A model generated the notes under the pieces. The model had not been told where the DNA came from, did not search any database, and saw nothing but the letters and a program-made list of their open reading frames with translations. From a virus: DNA of 10,043 nt. The position numbers were made by a program, and so were the translations under genes. The stretch lies in the UHGV virus genome UHGV-2022489; one strand, given 5' to 3'. Of the stretch, positions 1-9,259 are shown piece after piece. Numbering within the stretch: position 1 is the stretch's first letter; every line of letters begins with the position of its first letter.

Positions 1-216
1 TCAGTAAAGAGAATGAGAGATCAAAGTGGTCATTTTAATTGAGCTGGATAACGGACATTTCAATTGAGCCTTGACAAATGGTAAGGATGGCAGAATCTGG
101 CGGGAATCGTTGACACTGGCCGTCAACTGGCTACTATCGACAGTGATTCAAAATCATCCGTTTCTCCAAACGAATCAGAATCAAATGTCTGTCAGCAGTA
201 AGTGAACGGCCTGACC

Positions 217-414
217 TCACCAATCAGGCCTGTTCATCCAGTTAGTTGGTAAATCTGTACCTGATACACGAGAATCAAACACCACTTCTTCAGTGCCATC
301 ACCATGATGCCGGATAATCTGGTAACCGGATTGCGGGTTCTGGCTCTCAGCTTCATAAGCAGCCCGGAATGCTGGATCTTTGAGAAGCATCACTTTCAGC
401 TCCTGATGTGTCAT
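217..414 (-). CDS. Small hypothetical protein; the track ORF is 217..465, but the start is more likely the internal Met at 412-414 (MTHQELKVMLLKDPAFRAAYEAES...), giving about 65 aa. Function unknown; could be phage or host.
   Basis: Open frame in the track. The internal ATG at 412-414 is preceded by GGAAAAA, whereas the first ATG at 463-465 has no recognisable Shine-Dalgarno. No motif I can assign. Confidence 0.3.
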   Translation of the reverse strand: MTHQELKVMLLKDPAFRAAYEAESQNPQSGYQIIRHHGDGTEEVVFDSRVSGTDLPTNWMNRPDW

Positions 415-587
415 GAATTTTTCCATGATAAGCCCCGATGAATGCTGCCGCGCCGAATCAGCCATAACGCTGAAAATGGAAACTGTACGGCTTGGCCAAC
501 CCCGGACAGCAACAAAACAAGTTTTGTCACTGACCGGCGTTATCTTTCAAAAAAGACAGTTAACGATTTTTTGTCTGGTGTTTATGC

Positions 588-614
588 GTGAAATTTCGTG
601 CGTACGAAATTCAC
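588..614. repeat. Imperfect inverted repeat (hairpin-capable) in the non-coding region downstream of the secretin gene: GTGAAATTTCGT-gcgt-ACGAAATTCAC.
   Basis: Read directly: arms of about 11 bp with one bulged base. In Ff-type phages the region after gene IV carries packaging and origin hairpins; the same role here is inference. Confidence 0.4.
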
Positions 615-947
615 CACCAATAAACAAACGGACGATGACTGACCGGAAAAGCAATGCCGTCAGCATCATGACCACGCATTACCTGATTGAGAAGCCTTCT
701 GACTTCACGGCGCTCAGGCCTGGTCATCATCATATTGCGATACCAGGACGGCGATTTATCAAACCATCTGGCACAACTGGCAAAATGTGAACCGACACGA
801 CGATAAGACTTAAGGCGGCCACCGGGAAGTCGGTCACGCGCCTTATTTTTTACAGACATAATAAATCCTCTAAGTAACTGAATACCTAGAAGATGTCGTA
901 CTGTTCATACCCCATAAAAGTTAACGCCATAATAAAAATCCATACAA

Positions 948-2192
948 TCAGTTCAGGTTGTCCCGGAACAGTTCACCGCTCCTCGCGGCGCTGCGGGGCG
1001 TCGCCCTGCTCCGGTCAACCTTTCTGACCTGAAGCATCACCATAATATCAGTCTTGTTGCTTTCACTGGTACGGGAACCGAAGAAGCTCCAGCCGGAACT
1101 GGCCTTACTGTCTTTCTGTTCAGCAAGGCCACCAAGTAAAATAATGTCACCATCTGCAAGGCTGACTTCGGTTGTTACATCACGCTTGATAAGGGTTGGC
1201 GAGTTATTGACGCCGGTTTCAGCGGTCACAAAGTTGGAAAGCTGCTGCTGAATCTTGAGATCCATTGTCCGACTTTTGATTGATGGCGTCACGTTAAACA
1301 AAACACCGCTGGAACGATATTCAACGGATTGCGTTGTCGTATTGTTATTCACCGTAACACTGCCCAGTACTGGCACATCAGAGCCGACTGAAAAAGACGC
1401 TGAGGCATTATTTTTTACCCGCAGTCGTGGCGCACTGACAACAGTAAAACGACTGTCGGTTTTCAGCAGATTGAAAATGGCATCAATGGAGCCGGTTCGA
1501 ATATTGATAAAATTATCCAGTCCGGCAGCACCAACTGAAATATTGAATTTATCAGACAGAATTTTAGCCGCTAAAAGAATGCCGGAGCCGTCAGACTGCG
1601 AGGTCTGAACCTCAAAAACATAACCAGAAACAACCACTTCATCACTCATCGTATCCAGCGAAGTGACCAGTGTTTTCAGGATGGCGATATCCTCTTTCGT
1701 ACCATAATAAACCAGAATATCACCGGTTCGATTGATGTAGTTGCTTGCCCCTGATGAACCTTTTAGCGAATCGTCAGAAATCACGGCTCCACTGTTATTG
1801 AAGGAGCCTGAAACGTAGCCGCCAAGAATATCAGACAGGTAGGCAACAGAACGGTACTGAGGCGTATAAGTCCATGTATAACGTGGCTTAACCGGCTCTT
1901 TCGGCGTATAGGGCGCGATAAAATCAACACCCTTTTTCGTCCATATTCGAATGTTCATATTGCCAAGATAACGGGTTACAAATTCCCGTTCATCAATATC
2001 AGGTGTTAACCTGAATGTAATCATTCGTTCATCATTAACAAGCTGTGGATCTAGCATATACGGGACTTTAAGCACCTCACTGTAAATAAGAGAAATAGCC
2101 TCCGGTAGCTTGACTTTATTTAATTCAAGCTCTGACCCTGCGAAAGCACATGAAGAAAATAGTAGCGTTAATGCGAGTAAAATCTTTTTCAT
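948..2192 (-). CDS. Filamentous-phage pIV-type secretin (outer-membrane export channel), 414 aa
   Basis: N-terminal signal peptide (MKKILLALTLLFSSCAFAG); C-terminal secretin-like segment (DGDIILLGGLAEQKDSK...SGWSFFGSRTSESNKTDIMVMLQVRKV); last gene of the morphogenesis block. Its ATG (2190-2192) overlaps the stop of the upstream pI-like gene by one base (TAATG), indicating translational coupling. Confidence 0.85.
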   Translation of the reverse strand: MKKILLALTLLFSSCAFAGSELELNKVKLPEAISLIYSEVLKVPYMLDPQLVNDERMITFRLTPDIDEREFVTRYLGNMNIRIWTKKGVDFIAPYTPKEPVKPRYTWTYTPQYRSVAYLSDILGGYVSGSFNNSGAVISDDSLKGSSGASNYINRTGDILVYYGTKEDIAILKTLVTSLDTMSDEVVVSGYVFEVQTSQSDGSGILLAAKILSDKFNISVGAAGLDNFINIRTGSIDAIFNLLKTDSRFTVVSAPRLRVKNNASASFSVGSDVPVLGSVTVNNNTTTQSVEYRSSGVLFNVTPSIKSRTMDLKIQQQLSNFVTAETGVNNSPTLIKRDVTTEVSLADGDIILLGGLAEQKDSKASSGWSFFGSRTSESNKTDIMVMLQVRKVDRSRATPRSAARSGELFRDNLN

Positions 2193-3217
2193 TATTTTTT
2201 CCCCGTATAAAGCGTCACACGCTCACCATCAATAATTCCGCTCATCAACATCCCTTTGTAATTAAAACTAGATGCAGGAACGGCACGCAAAACACCGGCA
2301 CCGTTAACAAGAATCACAAACGCCCTGCCTTCACTGGTCATTCTCCCTGATATACGCCACTCGGTTGAAAGTGGCGGTTCAGCTGGTTCTGAGGGAGTAT
2401 CTGATGCTGGAGTAGCAGCGGAAGAACGAAACATGGCCGCATCACGTACATCTGTTGTAGTCAAATCTGGCGAGGGATCGCTTCGGCCAAACGTGCTGAA
2501 AAATGAGTAAATCAGCCAGCCTGACCCGATAAACATCAATGGAAAAAGCACAAGAAAGAACCTGACTTTGCCAGAATTCCAGATGCTCTGGCGTTTATCT
2601 GTCTGCTTTTCATTACCGTTATTTCCTTCATAGCTTTTGTAAAGTTCAAAAATATCAGGGTTATATTTATTGCGATAACTGGTGACGAGGTTGCTTTTAT
2701 AGATTTTGTGGCCTGAATATACGTCAATGCAGTAATGATTATTCAGGCCCAACGCTTTCAGCTTGCGCATCCGGTAAGTTGTTTCTATTTTGTCTTTCAG
2801 AAAGCGAGCAATATTAGAAAGTGACTGATTTACAATAACCAAAGCACAGCTAATACCCGTTTCAGGGTGCGTAAAATGACGATGTTCAGCAATAAATGAT
2901 TTCTTCTCAGCCGTCATATCCTTATCGCTACCGAAGATTCGCCATGCTTCATCAATAACAATTAAATCACCAAACTGGCAAAAGCTCCCTTCCCCACCTT
3001 TAAAAGGAAAGAAATCTGCTTTAAGCACATCATCATTATCCACAACAATAATTTCTCCCGTTGCATCAGGATAACGTTCGGTGATTTTATCTTTTTGTAA
3101 ACCATAAATGTTCGTCACAACTCTCCGGCCGCTGGTAAATGCCGGAATAATGACATTGCAAACGGCTTCATAACTTTTTCCTGAGCCGGGTATGCCAATA
3201 TATGCAGAAATAGCCAT
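2192..3217 (-). CDS. Filamentous-phage pI / Zot-like assembly NTPase, 341 aa
   Basis: Walker A P-loop near the N-terminus (GIPGSGKS, aa 8-15), one predicted transmembrane helix (FFLVLFPLMFIGSGWLIYSFF) after the NTPase domain, and a position directly upstream of the secretin, as for gene I of Ff and zot of CTXphi. Confidence 0.85.
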   Translation of the reverse strand: MAISAYIGIPGSGKSYEAVCNVIIPAFTSGRRVVTNIYGLQKDKITERYPDATGEIIVVDNDDVLKADFFPFKGGEGSFCQFGDLIVIDEAWRIFGSDKDMTAEKKSFIAEHRHFTHPETGISCALVIVNQSLSNIARFLKDKIETTYRMRKLKALGLNNHYCIDVYSGHKIYKSNLVTSYRNKYNPDIFELYKSYEGNNGNEKQTDKRQSIWNSGKVRFFLVLFPLMFIGSGWLIYSFFSTFGRSDPSPDLTTTDVRDAAMFRSSAATPASDTPSEPAEPPLSTEWRISGRMTSEGRAFVILVNGAGVLRAVPASSFNYKGMLMSGIIDGERVTLYTGKK

Positions 3218-4763
3218 AACTCACCCTATAACAGGAATACGTCGAATTAATAATTGGCGTTAAAATATCTCTTGCCGTTGGCGTTTCTTCAAGCTCAGGC
3301 TCTTTTACACCGGGATCTTCTCCCAAATCTATATTGCCATTATTTCCGGTGTCAGATCCTGAGTTGTTATTAATGGTAATATCAATATTGACGTCAGCCC
3401 CTGCACTGTCAGATACAGGTGAAAGCATATCTAATAACGTTGGAGATAGCCTAAGTTCCGACATCGCAGAAGTTACTTCAGCCGGTGAAACCTCTTTAAA
3501 CGGTAAGCCGTTATAATCGGCATTAACGGCAGCTTCAGACCACAGCTCGTTAATCATGTCGGCAAGAAGTGCTGGCGATACACTAACACTATCAAGATAC
3601 TCCAGATAATCAATCATGGACTCAATATTTCCTGCCTCCAGTACTTCCGTCATGGCTTTATATTTGGTATTGGTCCAGATAGTAAGCTCACTCTTTTCAT
3701 CAATATCTTTTGCGGTGTAATCCTCTTTTTCAGGAACGGCGCAAATCGTCGAATATCCACCATTTGACTGATTAGTCGTTTTACAAGGCGTGTTGTGATA
3801 CTGATATTGCTTGCCTGCTGTTAAATAAGCAACGCTGTAATACATGGGAAGCCCTGCTACATTTTCATACATGGGAATACCTGCGGGAAATGAAGATGCG
3901 GCCGGGTTGCTATACAAGTGTGTAATTTCTGGTATTTCATAAAATGAGGAAGGATAAGTAAACTTATAATTCTGTTCAGTAAAGGATACATCTCCATTAC
4001 TGTTGACAACTTTATTCGTCACAGTGCGTTCAAAATTTGTTAGTGTTTCAGTATAAGTACGCGAGTTATAGTCATTAAGATAATTTCTGGCAATTTCAGT
4101 TGGATTATCACCATAGTAATAAATTAGCTCTTTCGAATCCTGATAATAATAAAGTGCATTATCTGGCGTGGAATATCCTGTTTCAACACCTACAACTGGA
4201 GAACCCGCATCCACATTATTACGACTAACATGAAGGATTACCGGACTTAATTCCTGTGGTTCAAAATTAACGGTTATCGTCTTACTTTCACCACTTTGAC
4301 CACTGTACGTTACTTCATATAAATTATCGGAAATCTTTTTACCGTTAGTCATTACCATTACCGAGCCGTCAGATGAACTCAAAGAAGACGGAACAAAAGA
4401 TGATACAGCAGCAGCAATACCCGCCCACGTTGCAACACCGCTCATTTTGTATGATGAGGCAGCAGGCAAGTATTCGGCAGCATTAGCCGCAGCGCGGCCA
4501 ACAAAAACACGGGTTGCTGTAAGCTGTGATGCCGTATAAATCGCATCATTGGCAGCAAAGCGACGAACAAGCACCCGGCCAACGACTTTAGGAATAACAG
4601 CCCGCGCAGCCACTGCTGCAATTGCTGGTACAAATGAATATGAATATCGGGGAAAGGAAACCCAGAGAAAGGAAAAAATAAAGGAATAAACCGTCAGCCT
4701 CTTAGCCCAAGAATAACGACATAAGCTGAGACGATCCCCCATAAAAGGGAACCCAATTTCCAT
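3168..4763 (-). CDS. pIII-like minor coat / adsorption protein (putative), 531 aa; start codon uncertain
   Basis: Large ORF immediately downstream of the major coat gene. GGAGA lies about 8 nt upstream of the ATG at 4761-4763. Contains a Gly/Asn/Ser-rich linker (NNNSGSDTGNNGNIDLGEDPG) typical of inter-domain linkers in pIII-type proteins. The assignment is by position and composition only. The 3' end overlaps the pI-like gene by 50 nt. Confidence 0.55.
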   Translation of the reverse strand: MEIGFPFMGDRLSLCRYSWAKRLTVYSFIFSFLWVSFPRYSYSFVPAIAAVAARAVIPKVVGRVLVRRFAANDAIYTASQLTATRVFVGRAAANAAEYLPAASSYKMSGVATWAGIAAAVSSFVPSSLSSSDGSVMVMTNGKKISDNLYEVTYSGQSGESKTITVNFEPQELSPVILHVSRNNVDAGSPVVGVETGYSTPDNALYYYQDSKELIYYYGDNPTEIARNYLNDYNSRTYTETLTNFERTVTNKVVNSNGDVSFTEQNYKFTYPSSFYEIPEITHLYSNPAASSFPAGIPMYENVAGLPMYYSVAYLTAGKQYQYHNTPCKTTNQSNGGYSTICAVPEKEDYTAKDIDEKSELTIWTNTKYKAMTEVLEAGNIESMIDYLEYLDSVSVSPALLADMINELWSEAAVNADYNGLPFKEVSPAEVTSAMSELRLSPTLLDMLSPVSDSAGADVNIDITINNNSGSDTGNNGNIDLGEDPGVKEPELEETPTARDILTPIINSTYSCYRVSYGYFCIYWHTRLRKKL

Positions 4764-4827
4764 AATTCAATCTCCATAATAACCTCAAGTAAAACGGGCG
4801 ATATTGCATCGCCCATGAATAATGAAT

Positions 4828-5061
4828 TTATGCGGATTTAACGGTACGCAATACCCAGCGAACGCCAGCGACACCGGCATAAAGTGTTACCAGTGAAGCA
4901 GCAACGGCCATAATCGCAACCAGAACTGTACTGAAATCAATGCTGTTCGTCAGCGGCGATAAATCAACACCACTTGATGCCGCTCCTTCTGCAGCGAAAG
5001 TCGCGCCAGAAACAGCCATTAATGCAGGTACAGCCAGAAAACTAACGATTTTTTTAAACAT
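4828..5061 (-). CDS. pVIII-like major coat protein precursor, 77 aa
   Basis: Signal peptide (MFKKIVSFLAVPALMAVSGATFA) followed by a mature sequence beginning AEG (Ff pVIII mature protein begins AEGDDP), a hydrophobic helix (VLVAIMAVAASLVTLYAGVAGV) and a basic C-terminus (RWVLRTVKSA). GGAGA lies 8 nt upstream of the ATG. Confidence 0.8.
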   Translation of the reverse strand: MFKKIVSFLAVPALMAVSGATFAAEGAASSGVDLSPLTNSIDFSTVLVAIMAVAASLVTLYAGVAGVRWVLRTVKSA

Positions 5062-5095
5062 AACTCTATCTCCATTACATTTTAAAGGTTCGCAT

Positions 5096-5347
5096 TCAAG
5101 CAGTACGAACCATCTTTATTACCTGTCCCACACCTACAGAAAAAAGCCAGAGCAGCAGGACAGAGCCAAAACCTAATGTCCAGTAATTTTCCATTGCAGA
5201 ATAATCAATTTGATGAAATGGTTCAGAACGTACCATTATTGCCTGACATTCTTTTGCATTGTTCGCATTACATAAATAACCTTCAATACGGTAACCATTT
5301 TCAGGAATATGATTATCAAACTGAATATCGAAACCTGATGTATCCAT
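5096..5347 (-). CDS. Hypothetical phage protein with a C-terminal transmembrane anchor, 83 aa (possible minor virion or assembly protein)
   Basis: ORF between the ssDNA-binding-like gene and the major coat gene, where Ff encodes pVII/pIX. C-terminal hydrophobic helix (WTLGFGSVLLLWLFSVGVGQVI) followed by basic residues (KMVRTA). No recognisable catalytic motif. Confidence 0.45.
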   Translation of the reverse strand: MDTSGFDIQFDNHIPENGYRIEGYLCNANNAKECQAIMVRSEPFHQIDYSAMENYWTLGFGSVLLLWLFSVGVGQVIKMVRTA

Positions 5348-5349
5348 AA

Positions 5350-5667
5350 TCAGCCTTTTATTTCAGTAATGCCGCCATCTGATGAAATGTTATAAGTTAC
5401 TCCTTCCCTCCCCTCCATTGACCAGACGCGAACATATACAGGTATCTGGACTAACTTACCGATAAAATTATTTGCCTGATTCATTACACCGGCATTAACA
5501 AGAGCCTGAGATACACGAATAATAATCTGGTCTTGCTTAGTGCCGCCAAAACCATCAGGAATCTCTAAGCCAACACCAATTTCATTATAGTATCCCTGAC
5601 CATTGACCTTATTACGCTGGCGAGCACCAAGCATTTTACCTTTTACAAAAAGACCATAATTAGACAT
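5350..5667 (-). CDS. Putative ssDNA-binding protein (gene V / RstB position), 105 aa
   Basis: Small ORF directly downstream of the Rep gene and tightly packed with its neighbours, as for gene V in Ff and rstB in CTXphi. Assignment is by size and synteny only. Confidence 0.45.
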   Translation of the reverse strand: MSNYGLFVKGKMLGARQRNKVNGQGYYNEIGVGLEIPDGFGGTKQDQIIIRVSQALVNAGVMNQANNFIGKLVQIPVYVRVWSMEGREGVTYNISSDGGITEIKG

Positions 5668-5678
5668 ATCACTCTCCT

Positions 5679-6731
5679 TTAATGCCAGTTACTGGCATGT
5701 GAAATACGGTTATAATCGAAAATTAAACCTTTCTCATAAACCCATGATGGAATTTTGGCTGGTTTGGCTTCAAGAGTACGAACCAACGGAACAACGTTAT
5801 TAGAATCCGGTGACTCACAATAAAAGTTAATATCTATTCCGAAAGAAAGTAATTCTTTACGGTGTCGGTAGAATGTAGGTTTCGGAAACATCTCTTTCAT
5901 GTTCGCGCCCTGCTTCCACAATAAATATGTAGACTGTATTTTTCTTGGGAGATTAATTATTTTTTCATCAGTTAATATAGTATTTTGATTCATTTCTATT
6001 CTCCCTACATAGTCAGAGAATAATTTATTGGGCGTCTCAATATTCCAGCTATTACCAAGCGTAAGATTCAAATCAATTAATTCAGTTGTTCTTAATGTTA
6101 ATTCAATGCGTAATTTATCTTTTGACCAGTCCAGTAAACCAGCTTTAACGAATTCGTCTGCCATCTGGTGCCCTTTTTTGCCAGATGTATGCTCATCATA
6201 TTTTGAATAAAATTTCAGGCTCCAACGACGGGAGTTTTTCCCTAAGTAAACAGTGCCACCTTTACCACAGGCGCGACCGTGGCGAGTTTTAGCTTTAAAT
6301 TCTGCGGCATATAACCATGCGCGGACATTTTCTAATGTTGACAATGAATACATGTAATTGATATCGATGCGCGAGATCTTAAATTGCCCTTCCATGACCT
6401 GCCGATAGGATGGTAGATCATGAGGAATATGCAGTAATGCCAATATTCTGGCGTAAGTTGTTACCACCAACCCTTGCAAATCGTCGGGACCGATAACAGA
6501 GTGACCTTGCAAAAACTTTGATGGATTACCGTCAATGTAGAGATGTGTTGCCCGACCTTCACCATCAGATCCAACAGACCTTACTTTCATTGTGGACTCA
6601 TGCGAACCGCGAACGGTCAACCGTTTTACTGTTTCCCACTCCACTGCACCGTCAGCATCGACGCTGACGACACTACCAGCCGGTAACGGTCGGTGTGTGC
6701 AAGGCAGGATTCCGGTAAACCAGTCGATCAT
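5679..6731 (-). CDS. Rolling-circle replication initiation protein (pII / RstA-like, Rep_trans-type), 350 aa
   Basis: First gene of the minus-strand phage operon, divergent from the HTH repressor. Contains a segment (GKGGTVYLGKNSRRWSLKFYSKYDE) resembling the conserved G-x-T-x-Y-x-G-x-R ... Y-x-K motif of Rep_trans replication initiators. Confidence 0.8.
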   Translation of the reverse strand: MIDWFTGILPCTHRPLPAGSVVSVDADGAVEWETVKRLTVRGSHESTMKVRSVGSDGEGRATHLYIDGNPSKFLQGHSVIGPDDLQGLVVTTYARILALLHIPHDLPSYRQVMEGQFKISRIDINYMYSLSTLENVRAWLYAAEFKAKTRHGRACGKGGTVYLGKNSRRWSLKFYSKYDEHTSGKKGHQMADEFVKAGLLDWSKDKLRIELTLRTTELIDLNLTLGNSWNIETPNKLFSDYVGRIEMNQNTILTDEKIINLPRKIQSTYLLWKQGANMKEMFPKPTFYRHRKELLSFGIDINFYCESPDSNNVVPLVRTLEAKPAKIPSWVYEKGLIFDYNRISHASNWH

Positions 6732-6902
6732 AAGTAGTCACACCCATCAAAATATACGTCAATAGTCATTTGTGAGCGGATTAAATGGTCACAATGTAAT
6801 ATGCTCAGATCTGACAGTCAATACATTTGCAATGTTTAAATTGTCAGAAATGAGCATAAAATCTAACTATTGAAAAACCACTGTTAAGATGGAGCCAAGT
6901 AG
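6732..6902. promoter_or_regulatory. Divergent promoter/operator region between the Rep gene and the repressor gene
   Basis: 171-bp AT-rich intergenic region between divergent genes. Contains inverted repeats (TCTGACA ... TGTCAGA around 6810-6860; near-palindrome CATTTGCAATG) that could be operator sites. Exact promoters were not mapped. Confidence 0.5.
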
Positions 6903-7349
6903 ATGGGCAACAATGAGCATGAAGTTATGGCGGACAAACAGAGAGCAGAACGTATCAAAAAGGTAATTCTGGAACACTCGACTTATGAAGAACTGGCCGA
7001 GAAGACTGGCATTAGCGTGAGTACGCTGGTCAGGATAGCGTCCGGCAAAACTGAACCTAAATTCAGTGACATCATTCAGATAGCTAAAATTACGGGTGCA
7101 GACTTAAACACCTTAGCTTATGGCTATACTCTTGATGTTAAAGAAGAAGCTACCGAGCGGAAGCTAATCACTTCTGCGGATGGATATACTGATGAAGAAA
7201 CCACTAACGCACATAATTTCATCGTGTGGAACATCAGGACACTGGAAAAACAAGATATTCTGGCACTCGCAAGGCAGGTTTCTGCATTAAGTTCATACAC
7301 TTACAGTACTAAAATGTTTATGAAAAAAGCGGTGTCTGGAGAAGAGTAA
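6903..7349 (+). CDS. XRE-family helix-turn-helix transcriptional repressor (RstR-like phage repressor), 148 aa
   Basis: Classic Cro/C1-type HTH (STYEELAEKTGISVSTLVRIASGKTEPKFSDIIQIAKITGADLNTLA); divergent from the Rep gene as rstR is in CTXphi; GGAG about 9 nt upstream of the ATG. Confidence 0.8.
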   Translation: MGNNEHEVMADKQRAERIKKVILEHSTYEELAEKTGISVSTLVRIASGKTEPKFSDIIQIAKITGADLNTLAYGYTLDVKEEATERKLITSADGYTDEETTNAHNFIVWNIRTLEKQDILALARQVSALSSYTYSTKMFMKKAVSGEE

Positions 7350-7378
7350 AAGGATTAACAGTCTCAGGAATGAGACAA

Positions 7379-7413
7379 ACGTGCAGTATTACCAACACTG
7401 CACGTTCTTTATT
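7379..7413 (+). terminator. Rho-independent terminator downstream of the repressor gene
   Basis: Perfect 9-bp stem (ACGTGCAGT, 9-nt loop, ACTGCACGT) followed by TCTTTATT, 30 nt after the stop codon. Confidence 0.6.
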
Positions 7414-7448
7414 GTGCGAATTTTGAACAGTAAAAAAGGATCAAAAGG

Positions 7449-7871
7449 ATGAGTAGAAATAACGAAACAAGCGGCGTTGAACTGGTTGTCGTCGGCGTAT
7501 TTGCTTTCTGTCTGGCAGTTGTTGCCTGGCTAATGAAAACTTTCGATGTTGAATGGCAAACAGCACTGGAAACTGCGCCTGGCCTGATAGTCTGGCTGCT
7601 TGTTGTTGGGGCGGGGATCTTTTTCGGGATCAAAATGGAAACAGGCCTTGTTCGCTGGGGTGCTCCACTGGCGATCGCCCTTCTGATTCCGGTATTCAAA
7701 CCAATTCTTAAGGAAGCTGCCGGAGTACGTGAAATGGGTGGGTTGGTTTTCGATGATATGGTTTCGTGGTACGGAACTGGCTGGGGAATGTCGTTAATGT
7801 TTTTCGGTATTCTTATCGTCGGATACGGTCTGCTTTATTGGTGGCACAGAAGAAACTCTTATTATTGGTAA
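7449..7871 (+). CDS. Small integral membrane protein with four predicted transmembrane helices, 140 aa; function unknown
   Basis: Four hydrophobic segments (LVVVGVFAFCLAVVAWLM; GLIVWLLVVGAGIFFGI; WGAPLAIALLIPVF; WGMSLMFFGILIVGYGLLYWW); AAGGA-type RBS upstream of the ATG. No motif I can assign. Confidence 0.7.
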   Translation: MSRNNETSGVELVVVGVFAFCLAVVAWLMKTFDVEWQTALETAPGLIVWLLVVGAGIFFGIKMETGLVRWGAPLAIALLIPVFKPILKEAAGVREMGGLVFDDMVSWYGTGWGMSLMFFGILIVGYGLLYWWHRRNSYYW

Positions 7872-7938
7872 GCAATTTTGCTCCATATATCAGCGGTGAA
7901 GTTCAGAGGTGGTTATTTTTTAGTCTTGAGGAAAGATA

Positions 7939-8733
7939 ATGAAGCCAGAAAAAGCTATCGAGATATTAAAAAGACAACGGGAGCAAATCCCAGCAATACA
8001 AAATGAACGAAGGAGTACAGGAAATAACCCAAGTTTTAACTTGTGGCAAAGAAACACTAAGACCGCCATATCAAAAATATTTGGTGAAGAGTCAGATCAC
8101 AAAAAAGAATTTGGCTCAATTCGATACTCTTTAATGGCATTTGTTGGTGATACACCAGATTATGTTTTCGATAACGCATTTTGTAGTGGTTTAGATGAAG
8201 CACATTCTCTTCTTACGTCTATGATCGCTGAGATTGAAGAATATGGAATTGACGGAAATTTCATAGAGACAAAAAATGATGCCGTAGCTCTTGTTGAACT
8301 AATTTGCCATCAATTTCATAAGGTTGCAAGACAGCTACAGCAACGACACGATAATAGACAAACCATTGAAATAAATGACGAATATGACGTTCAGGATTTA
8401 TTTCATGCTCTTTTGAAGATTCATTTCGAGGATGTCAGACCAGAAGAATATACGCCAAGCTATGCAGGATCTTCAACACGAGTTGACTTCTTGTTAAAGA
8501 ATGAAAAAATCATTATCGAGTTAAAGAAAACGAGAAAAAATCTCAAGCAAAAAGAAGTTGGTGAGCAATTAATTGTTGATATAGCTCATTATCAAACGCA
8601 TCCTGATTGCGAAACTTTAGTGTGTTTTGTATATGACCCTGAAGGTAGAATTGCCAATCCAATTGGTGTGGAGAATGACCTTGAGCGTTGTACAAATTCA
8701 ATTTCGGTAAAAGTAATAATCTCACCAAAATAA
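7939..8733 (+). CDS. Hypothetical two-domain protein, 264 aa, with a candidate PD-(D/E)xK nuclease motif in the C-terminal half
   Basis: GAGGAAAG RBS upstream of the ATG. C-terminal region contains an acidic helix (EYDVQDLF, FEDV), then RVD183FLL and, 10 residues later, IIE194LK196, matching the D...(D/E)xK arrangement of restriction-endonuclease-fold nucleases. The N-terminal half is helical-looking and contains R131-x5-H137. Family not identified. Confidence 0.7.
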   Translation: MKPEKAIEILKRQREQIPAIQNERRSTGNNPSFNLWQRNTKTAISKIFGEESDHKKEFGSIRYSLMAFVGDTPDYVFDNAFCSGLDEAHSLLTSMIAEIEEYGIDGNFIETKNDAVALVELICHQFHKVARQLQQRHDNRQTIEINDEYDVQDLFHALLKIHFEDVRPEEYTPSYAGSSTRVDFLLKNEKIIIELKKTRKNLKQKEVGEQLIVDIAHYQTHPDCETLVCFVYDPEGRIANPIGVENDLERCTNSISVKVIISPK

Positions 8734-8743
8734 AAGGACATAT

Positions 8744-9010
8744 ATGGCTACTGTAGATGATGTTGCACAATGGATGAAATCAGAGCTGGAAAACACAAAC
8801 TGGCTATATCAAGAAACTGTTGTATATAAAATAAAAGAGTTATTTGGCGATACTTTCGTATATTTGAATGCTAATGGAAATTTATCCATTGATAAAAAAG
8901 TATTAGCGAAATTTAGAAAGCTAACTAATGACACGGTTATATGGGAGAGAGGTGAAAAAGCATGGCGAAAAAGACAAGGTTATGATGCCCCTGGTCGACA
9001 GCAGGACTAA
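8744..9010 (+). CDS. Small hypothetical protein, 88 aa, translationally coupled to the upstream 264-aa gene; basic C-terminus
   Basis: Starts 10 nt after the upstream stop with AAGGA in the gap; followed within about 35 nt by a strong terminator. No recognisable motif. Confidence 0.65.
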   Translation: MATVDDVAQWMKSELENTNWLYQETVVYKIKELFGDTFVYLNANGNLSIDKKVLAKFRKLTNDTVIWERGEKAWRKRQGYDAPGRQQD

Positions 9011-9044
9011 ATAATTGGTTCGCACAATGACGTTATGCTAAAGA

Positions 9045-9080
9045 GGCCGCTGCGGGATTCGATCTTCGCAGCGGCCTTTT
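9045..9080 (+). terminator. Rho-independent terminator ending the two-gene cargo operon
   Basis: Perfect 10-bp GC-rich stem (GGCCGCTGCG, 12-nt loop, CGCAGCGGCC) followed by TTTT. Confidence 0.75.
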
Positions 9081-9110
9081 CAACATAACGAGTCGTACAT
9101 TATGCGCACT
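9078..9110. other. Candidate dif-like XerC/XerD recombination site (possible prophage attachment junction)
   Basis: TTATGCGCACt (9100-9110) matches the reverse complement of the E. coli dif XerC arm (TTATGCGCACC) at 10/11. tTTcAACATAA (9078-9088) matches the XerD arm (ATTTAACATAA) at 9/11. The intervening 11 bp is longer than the 6-bp dif core. The dif sequence is recalled from memory. Confidence 0.4.
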
Positions 9111-9259
9111 CATGTTGTAGTAGCCAACTTGAGATGTCCGTCTCTGACCAAATAGACATGTCCGCGCTACAGTCTCACCACAGCGATCACTGCTTTTAAA
9201 GATAGTTTCCCAATCAAAGGATTCTGATGACGGATCATGCACCGGCATTTTTACTTTGG

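Follow-up and report, generated by a model that had tools for sequence, protein, structure and literature searches.

A conserved four-helix membrane protein gene beside the repressor of enterobacterial inoviruses, a candidate exclusion or defense factor

Closest described systems and the membrane protein family

HK97 gp15, lactococcal Sie2009, P22 SieA, T4 Imm, and Pf PfsE are small inner-membrane proteins with which a resident phage blocks the entry of incoming phages, and their genes often belong to the lysogeny module; PfsE, of about 30 amino acids (aa), targets the platform of the type IV pilus. Lambda RexB, a 144-aa protein with four transmembrane (TM) segments, is co-transcribed with cI and rexA. 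Here, we analyzed a 10,043-nucleotide (nt) stretch of viral DNA (UHGV virus genome UHGV-2022489; the whole stretch is called the window below), in which an inovirus (filamentous) prophage spans positions ~74 to 9112. Our subject is the gene at 7449-7871 of this prophage, which encodes a predicted four-TM protein directly after the repressor. An original prediction, made from the letters of the window, had proposed that the product is a superinfection exclusion factor or the membrane component of a three-gene unit with the two genes that follow. We tentatively favor the first option in a broader form, in which the protein is produced together with the repressor in the lysogen and serves as an exclusion or defense factor at the inner membrane.

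The gene resembles rexB in the size of its product, in the four TM segments, and in its place downstream of a repressor on the same strand. However, there is no sequence or profile similarity between the two (no Pfam family at E ≤ 1; an hhalign probability of 0.1 for the family alignment against lambda RexB), and homology to RexB was rejected on these grounds. There is also no RexA-like partner; the neighbors are the repressor and variable cargo, and none of them proved to be a conserved companion. The likeness to HK97 gp15, Sie2009, SieA, Imm, and PfsE is by analogy only, since the protein matched none of the Pfam or PHROG families so annotated. PfsE is cited in PMC10473763. In Vibrio filamentous prophages, a variable accessory locus next to the regulator is enriched in defense genes (PMC11630473). 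The slot behind the membrane gene (7872-9040) is comparable in that it holds a nuclease-like pair in the window and, in sister phages, an AbiJ-like protein and others. Unlike the occupants of the Vibrio hot spots, the membrane gene itself is a conserved flank.

Earlier records contain the gene as a hypothetical open reading frame (ORF) without a name in CUS-1 and UPΦ prophages and as PHROG family phrog_4174. The copy in Escherichia coli UTI89 (O18:K1:H7) has 96% nucleotide identity to that of the window and encodes WP_000089310.1, which is probably orf1a of CUS-1 (judged from position and counts, not from sequence). Because UTI89 also carries the same backbone as the window prophage, we place the latter in the CUS-1/YpfΦ lineage of the literature (PMC4266046). 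A survey of UPΦ prophages recorded three reverse-oriented ORFs near dif, with h3 in 221 of 229 prophages, h4 in 56, and h5 in 57 (PMC7307601). The membrane gene is probably h3, again as judged from position and numbers and not from sequence.

The ORF starts with ATG and encodes 140 aa, and phrog_4174, a family annotated as of unknown function, matches residues 1 to 140 on profile positions 1 to 140 (E = 1.6e-85). Four hydrophobic segments were detected at residues ~10-29, 45-61, 70-83, and 113-132 (Kyte-Doolittle, 19-residue scan), a number that none of 1,000 residue shuffles of the protein reached. Lysine and arginine are enriched at the N terminus, in the loop at 62-69, and at the C terminus (C-terminal HRR); from this distribution, both termini are predicted to be cytoplasmic and the loops at 30-44 and 84-112 periplasmic. 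AlphaFold2 returned a four-helix bundle from a diverse 27-sequence alignment that included distant relatives (predicted local distance difference test [pLDDT] score of 86.6; predicted template modeling score of 0.73), and a weak model from close homologues only (pLDDT of 66). The product is thus modeled as a four-helix inner-membrane protein, and the original description of a four-TM protein without an enzymatic motif holds: scan and model agree, and the protein had no family at E ≤ 1 in Pfam, NCBIfam, or PADLOC. Among the families looked for without a Pfam or NCBIfam match at that threshold were GtrA-like flippases, small multidrug resistance transporters, holins, and TraS/Eex entry exclusion proteins. 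Protein Data Bank sequences gave nothing better than an E value of 0.05, and fold searches recovered generic helical bundles only. A lipoprotein was considered and rejected, since C21 is not conserved and there is no lipobox.

Across 28 pairwise comparisons of eight homologues, the ratio of nonsynonymous to synonymous substitution rates (dN/dS) was 0.015 to 0.21, with dS up to 0.95, as expected of a real gene under strong purifying selection. A word-indexed search of 5.8 billion proteins yielded 49 clusters with identities down to 52%, and all named sources were Enterobacterales (including Klebsiella, E. coli, Salmonella, Citrobacter, Phytobacter, Pantoea, Lonsdalea, Yersinia enterocolitica, Kosakonia, Pectobacterium, and Mixta). 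When a profile was run exhaustively against 1.8 billion representatives, in a library that gives no source names, only 41 proteins were recovered, including relatives of 109 to 162 aa at 19 to 53% identity. In this wider family, P73, P85, Y108 (in a W-Y-G-x-x-W motif), and G125 (G-Y-G) are nearly invariant. Conservation peaks in the two predicted periplasmic loops and TM4 and is lowest in the cytoplasmic loop and the termini. The gene was present in 127 of 5,426 complete E. coli genomes (≥80% of its length; ~2%) and in thousands of assemblies, with more than 6,000 blocks on contigs that carry the family. Extra-intestinal E. coli such as UTI89 often carry it.

Fixed position across inovirus backbones and turnover of the adjoining cargo

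The gene order was the same in every inovirus sampled: the replication protein (Rep) gene on one strand and, on the other, the regulator, two hairpins, the membrane gene, variable genes, and the phage end. We found this arrangement in CUS-1-type phages (L001, L002, L020, and L056 to L065); in UPΦ-type phages (L003 and L004), whose morphogenesis genes are IKe-like, whose regulator has 60 aa, and whose gene II product is only 85% identical; in a Klebsiella spallanzanii phage (L005) with a 40% identical repressor; in phages with a second Rep type (L006, L007, L018, and L019); in a Rep_trans phage (L054); and in a phage with a 467-aa Phage_CRI Rep (L055). The backbones that carry the gene thus include at least four types of replication protein, two unrelated families of regulator (a helix-turn-helix [HTH] protein of ~150 aa or a protein of ~60 aa), and unrelated morphogenesis modules. 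Copies that are 97 to 99% identical stand beside unrelated pIII, pVI, and secretin modules and unrelated regulators, and an 89% identical copy stands beside a different Rep. The lysogeny-module context that had been proposed for the gene was borne out. In the lysogeny arm of enterobacterial inoviruses that integrate at dif (the CUS-1 and UPΦ types with their relatives), it appears to be a conserved but dispensable part, and no other conserved gene separates it from a cargo hot spot, which has a dif-like site as its far end.

This hot spot occupies the slot from the membrane gene to the terminator and dif-like end, and it holds at least nine gene sets in otherwise near-identical phages (compared in sister loci L001, L002, L003, L004, L006, L008, L020, L058, L063, and L064). 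The sets follow membrane gene copies that are 88 to 100% identical. In the window, the cargo is a nuclease-like protein with a DUF6953 protein; elsewhere it is a pair of 155 and 123 aa, of 71 and 204 aa, of 89 and 240 aa, or of 133 and 114 aa, a zinc ribbon protein of 89 to 91 aa with a membrane-anchored protein of 159 aa, a single protein of 321 aa, 363 aa, or 369 aa (the last in UTI89/CUS-1), a Mob_CxxC_CxxC protein with one of 63 aa, or an AbiJ-like protein. The AbiJ-like cargo has AbiJ_NTD4 and Abi_C domains and is annotated as STM4504/CBY_0614 family, and most of the other cargo consists of orphan proteins. When places were chosen by an identical gene V protein, the membrane gene was present in 10 of 10, with seven cargo sets that included the AbiJ-like protein, and the nuclease pair in 3 of 10.

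These comparisons speak against the three-gene unit. Family members were found in many inoviruses that lack the pair; the pair was present in 24 complete E. coli genomes versus 127 for the membrane gene; and none of 18 nuclease homologues from tailed phages, in larger viral contigs (40 to 54% identity), had a member of the membrane family within 4 kb. The G+C content also differs, at 47.5% for the membrane gene (46% at third codon positions) versus 35.5% for the pair (26 to 27%). The common strand of the repressor, membrane gene, and pair was confirmed. Because the cargo varies, the genome counts differ, and the nuclease relatives occur without the membrane family, the unit is refuted, and the separate acquisition of the membrane gene and the low-G+C pair, which had also been suggested, is supported.

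Two side observations concern the cargo itself. The 264-aa protein of the pair has a C-terminal match to REase_DpnII-MboI (E = 7e-59) and to the PADLOC model Aga_Helical-REase, and its residues 1 to 107 match the candidate system PDC-S35. Its homologues in viral contigs apparently have no detectable DUF6953 neighbor. The protein is probably a stand-alone defense gene of the nuclease type. The zinc ribbon pair recurs directly after the membrane gene in L004, L007, L009, L018, L019, L059, and L060. Its 159-aa member has an N-terminal TM helix, and the 155-aa cargo protein of L001 (2024-2491) is a 38% identical homologue. This pair diverges roughly in step with the membrane gene (46, 54, and 63% identity in one comparison and 88 to 89, 84 to 96, and 79 to 91% in others).

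Transcription, proposed role, and alternatives

Upstream of the membrane gene, a consensus scan of the plus strand found a single sigma-70-like match, located before the repressor gene (Table 1), which is the probable promoter of the repressor and of the genes downstream. A promoter of the membrane gene's own had been looked for at 7414-7448, as the original prediction suggested, and the scan found no sigma-70-like match there. The same prediction spoke of a repressor terminator ahead of the gene. Two hairpins do lie there, and the second is terminator-like, although a consensus terminator scan called neither of them. The membrane gene and its downstream neighbor are separated by 67 nt without structure (RNA fold z = +0.7), and a strong terminator-like hairpin closes the gene row. 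No Rfam family matched in the window. From this layout, we infer a single transcription unit that would run from the repressor through the membrane gene into the cargo and that is possibly attenuated at hairpin 2.

The hairpins may have a further role. An 11-mer that overlaps hairpin 2, CACGTTCTTTA, was spotted by eye and, when checked against M13, proved to be an exact match to part of the nick region of the M13 (+) origin (GAGTCCACGTTCTTT^AATAGTGGACTC); a pattern search with the M13 nick site at up to three mismatches gave no match, owing to an indel. The phage at L008 has GTTCCAGATTT in place of CACGTTCTTTA. Across phages, the hairpin sequence type tracks the Rep type and neither the regulator type nor the divergence of the membrane gene: type A hairpins accompany a Phage_CRI pII, and type B hairpins (AAAGTTCGGGTGTCACAGAACCCCGAACCGCTTCGCGG) accompany a different Rep. 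Because the sequence type follows the replication protein, the hairpins are possibly origin-like rather than a terminator alone. The region may be the phage origin, yet it lies on the strand opposite gene II.

Under the exclusion or defense reading, which we hold with less than even confidence, the membrane gene would be transcribed from the repressor promoter through both hairpins and so be made in the lysogen, on a transcript shared with whichever cargo follows, as far as the terminator at ~9041-9084. The proposed site of action is the periplasmic side of the inner membrane, and the target would be a host component or a generic step of an invader; we prefer these to a phage-specific partner, since pIII, Rep, and the regulator all vary independently of the gene. 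Its likeliest activity would be exclusion of, or defense against, incoming phages or mobile DNA. One hypothetical target is a Tol-dependent membrane step that is common to filamentous phages with different primary receptors. Several lines of evidence lead to this reading: the position in the lysogeny arm (as for rexB and sie2009), the independence from phage-specific modules, the spread to other mobile elements and defense neighborhoods, the conserved periplasmic loops, and the dispensability of the gene for the phage life cycle. A narrower version, immunity to the phage's own morphogenesis proteins, was rejected since the gene does not co-vary with those modules.

Four points weigh against an exclusion or defense role. 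The protein has no homology to exclusion or defense proteins (none in Pfam or PADLOC, the RexB value given above, and generic folds). E. coli CU532-9 and a metagenome scaffold carry two variants in tandem, each with its own membrane gene, so exclusion of the phage's own kind is at best partial. Lysogens of YpfΦ, which lacks the gene, are already partly immune (PMC4266046). Finally, hairpin 2 with its T-run could stop most transcripts, and expression in the lysogen is deduced from the gene layout.

The question matters since filamentous prophages that integrate at dif are frequent in extra-intestinal E. coli, Klebsiella, Salmonella, and Yersinia. Alone among their accessory genes, the membrane gene is retained by nearly every sampled phage as the adjoining slot turns over, and this makes it the best single candidate for a gain to the lysogen or the phage at the membrane. 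If it is an exclusion factor, it would represent a new family for inoviruses of Enterobacterales and could explain cross-immunity between phages that use different receptors. In addition, as the conserved flank, the gene points to a cargo hot spot in which defense genes can be sought. Without an exclusion phenotype, it would be an ordinary conserved hypothetical protein.

Among the alternatives, an unlikely but serious one is that the protein is a host-directed fitness factor apart from exclusion, acting, for example, in envelope stress, transport, or colonization so that lysogens do better in the gut or urinary tract. Both CUS-1 and YpfΦ bring their hosts a modest gain in fitness in vivo (PMC4266046), purifying selection is strong even in a defective prophage and in remnants, and carriage by extra-intestinal strains such as UTI89 would fit. 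However, the YpfΦ effect arises without the membrane gene, the phenotype published for CUS-1 has been mapped to the virion gene puvA (PMC4266046), and the sequence gives no hint of a transporter or enzyme.

It is improbable that the protein works as a sensor or modulator in the membrane and, via the adjacent regulator, adjusts prophage induction or virion output. The gene is always directly downstream of a regulator gene, but copies of 97 to 99% identity beside two unrelated regulator families make a specific pairing unlikely. Conservation is weakest in the cytoplasmic loops and termini, and the distant relatives have no such regulator nearby. These relatives come from four loci with no inovirus genes: P0070 lies in a conjugative element of Vibrio, together with a TraD-like protein, T2SSE ATPases, SLT, and a topoisomerase; P0069 is the last gene after four small genes, including one for a 272-aa ThiF-type protein, in Tn7-like cargo (L013 7978-10393); P0052 ends a three-gene operon after two orphan genes, just upstream of a type II cyclic-oligonucleotide-based antiphage signaling system (CBASS) with cyclase, ThiF/E1, JAB, and SAVED proteins (L016 7125-13314); and P0031 is an orphan in Mixta.

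We consider it quite improbable that the protein is a membrane toxin or holin-like addiction factor that stabilizes the episome or prophage. In favor of this, the protein is small and hydrophobic, the elements that encode it are unstable in episomal form (PMC4266046), and its gene follows that of a small DNA-binding protein, an order known from some toxin-antitoxin systems. At 140 aa and with four helices, however, it is unlike type I membrane toxins, it matched no holin or toxin family, and intact copies persist in remnants in which the regulator gene is truncated (window 7195 onward).

There is little chance that the gene serves the phage life cycle as a virion, assembly, or replication gene needed for inovirus propagation, although it occurs in nearly every sampled member of several inovirus lineages and adjoins the possible origin-like hairpins. 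All morphogenesis and replication genes are on the other strand, across from the gene and the regulator. Near-identical copies stand with unrelated pIII, pVI, and secretin genes, and the 89% identical copy with a different Rep. Relatives in a conjugative element, a Tn7-like element, and a CBASS neighborhood do without inovirus genes. YpfΦ and CUS-1 are 99% identical over 7.1 kb covering regulation, replication, and assembly, whereas the ORFs of the arm are unrelated (YPO2271/2272 in YpfΦ versus orf1/orf1a in CUS-1), and YpfΦ particles are infectious (PMC4266046); E. coli TOP10 and ECOR31 are among the strains that take YpfΦ up (PMC4266046). Window 74-7349, of 7.3 kb, is consistent with this shared block ending at the repressor. 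As looking up the YpfΦ locus gave E. coli-type places only, the absence of the gene from YpfΦ rests on that review (PMC4266046) and on negative homology searches: no Yersinia pestis homologue was among the source-named matches of the word-indexed search, and the 41 matches of the profile search come from the library without names. Judged as an inovirus structural protein (pI/pXI, pIII, pIV, pVI, pVII, pVIII, or pIX), the product is not co-inherited with the morphogenesis module and is not present in every viable relative. The structural or assembly gene that the original prediction had named as an alternative is therefore not supported by strand, by the unrelated modules, or by YpfΦ.

Very unlikely is a scheme in which the protein is a constant, RexB-like membrane effector or channel shared by swappable sensor cargos, which would make these inoviruses modular platforms of abortive infection. 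Probable co-transcription, the co-divergence of the zinc ribbon pair with the membrane gene, and distant relatives that end operons beside ThiF-type and CBASS genes would agree with it, but the cargo families occur elsewhere without the membrane gene, and some look self-sufficient. The least probable reading makes the protein the sensor or effector of a three-gene defense unit with the 264-aa nuclease and the DUF6953 protein; a shared strand, the short unstructured gap, a single terminator, the presence of the pair behind the window's exact allele in 10 of 10 places among the matches listed, and the retention of all three genes in degraded Klebsiella remnants speak for it, but the allele-level linkage reflects one phage strain and the remnants one deletion event, and the genome counts, the cargo turnover behind 88 to 100% identical copies, the 18 nuclease homologues, and the difference in G+C content all stand against it.

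Layout and copies of the prophage

The features of the prophage are listed in Table 1. At its right end, similarity to E. coli prophages stops at 9109-9112, at the dif-like ACATTATGCGCAC.

Table 1. Features of the window UHGV-2022489 discussed in the text
Feature	Position	Strand	Remarks
Secretin gene	948-2192	-	
Zot/pI ATPase gene	2192-3217	-	
pIII-like ORF	3168-4763	-	
Coat protein gene	4828-5061	-	
Gene V-like single-stranded DNA-binding protein gene	5350-5667	-	
Gene II replication protein gene	5679-6731	-	Phage_CRI and G2P_X_C
Sigma-70-like match, TTTAAA-16-TAAAAT	6835-6862	+	Consensus match only; probable promoter
HTH_3 repressor-like regulator gene	6903-7349	+	148 aa; directly 5' of the membrane gene
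Hairpin 1 (GTCTCA ggaa TGAGAC)	7361-7376	+	Compensatory changes between phages
Hairpin 2	7378-7406	+	10-bp stem, 9-nt loop, then TTCTTTATT; terminator-like
CACGTTCTTTA	7401-7411	+	Overlaps hairpin 2; identical to 11 nt of the M13 (+)-origin nick region
Shine-Dalgarno-like AAGGA	7436-7440	+	8 nt 5' of the ATG; read from the sequence; conserved in upstream alignment
Four-TM membrane protein gene	7449-7871	+	140 aa; phrog_4174 family
Cargo gene 1	7939-8733	+	264 aa; C-terminal REase_DpnII-MboI (PD-(D/E)XK) domain
Cargo gene 2	8744-9010	+	88-aa DUF6953 protein
Intrinsic terminator-like hairpin	9041-9084	+	Strong; RNA fold z = -8.7; ends the plus-strand gene row
Dif-like ACATTATGCGCAC	9097-9109		Prophage end

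Searches of GenBank phages (nucleotide and tblastn) gave no match to the membrane gene or to 6700-9100, and the prophage backbone gave weak Zot matches only; that collection does not include these prophages. In contrast to E. coli copies, the window prophage lacks ~464 bp at ~3247-3253 (L001 6180-6643). Gone with this segment are the bulk of the DUF2523/pVI gene and ~65 codons at the 3' end of the pIII gene, and a fused ORF of 531 aa remains. This copy is probably unable to make virions; the membrane gene and cargo are intact nonetheless.

Prophages that are ~99.5% identical adjoin hipBA at the terminus of many E. coli chromosomes. Equally similar copies occur in a Klebsiella plasmid and in a 9,565-bp circular "plasmid" that looks like a replicative form. 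Three Klebsiella chromosomal remnants (L028, L029, and L030) retain only window 74-489, 950-1974, and 7195 onward, and thus hold a 3' repressor fragment, the intact membrane gene, and the nuclease pair; since the junctions are identical in all three, they go back to a single ancestral deletion. Tandem arrays were also seen at dif. Both CU532-9 (L001) and the metagenome scaffold (L056/L057) have two adjacent copies with different cargo, and FDAARGOS_1251 (L066) has at least three identical tandem copies, several with frameshifted genes. One E. coli genome contained up to 16 matching places.

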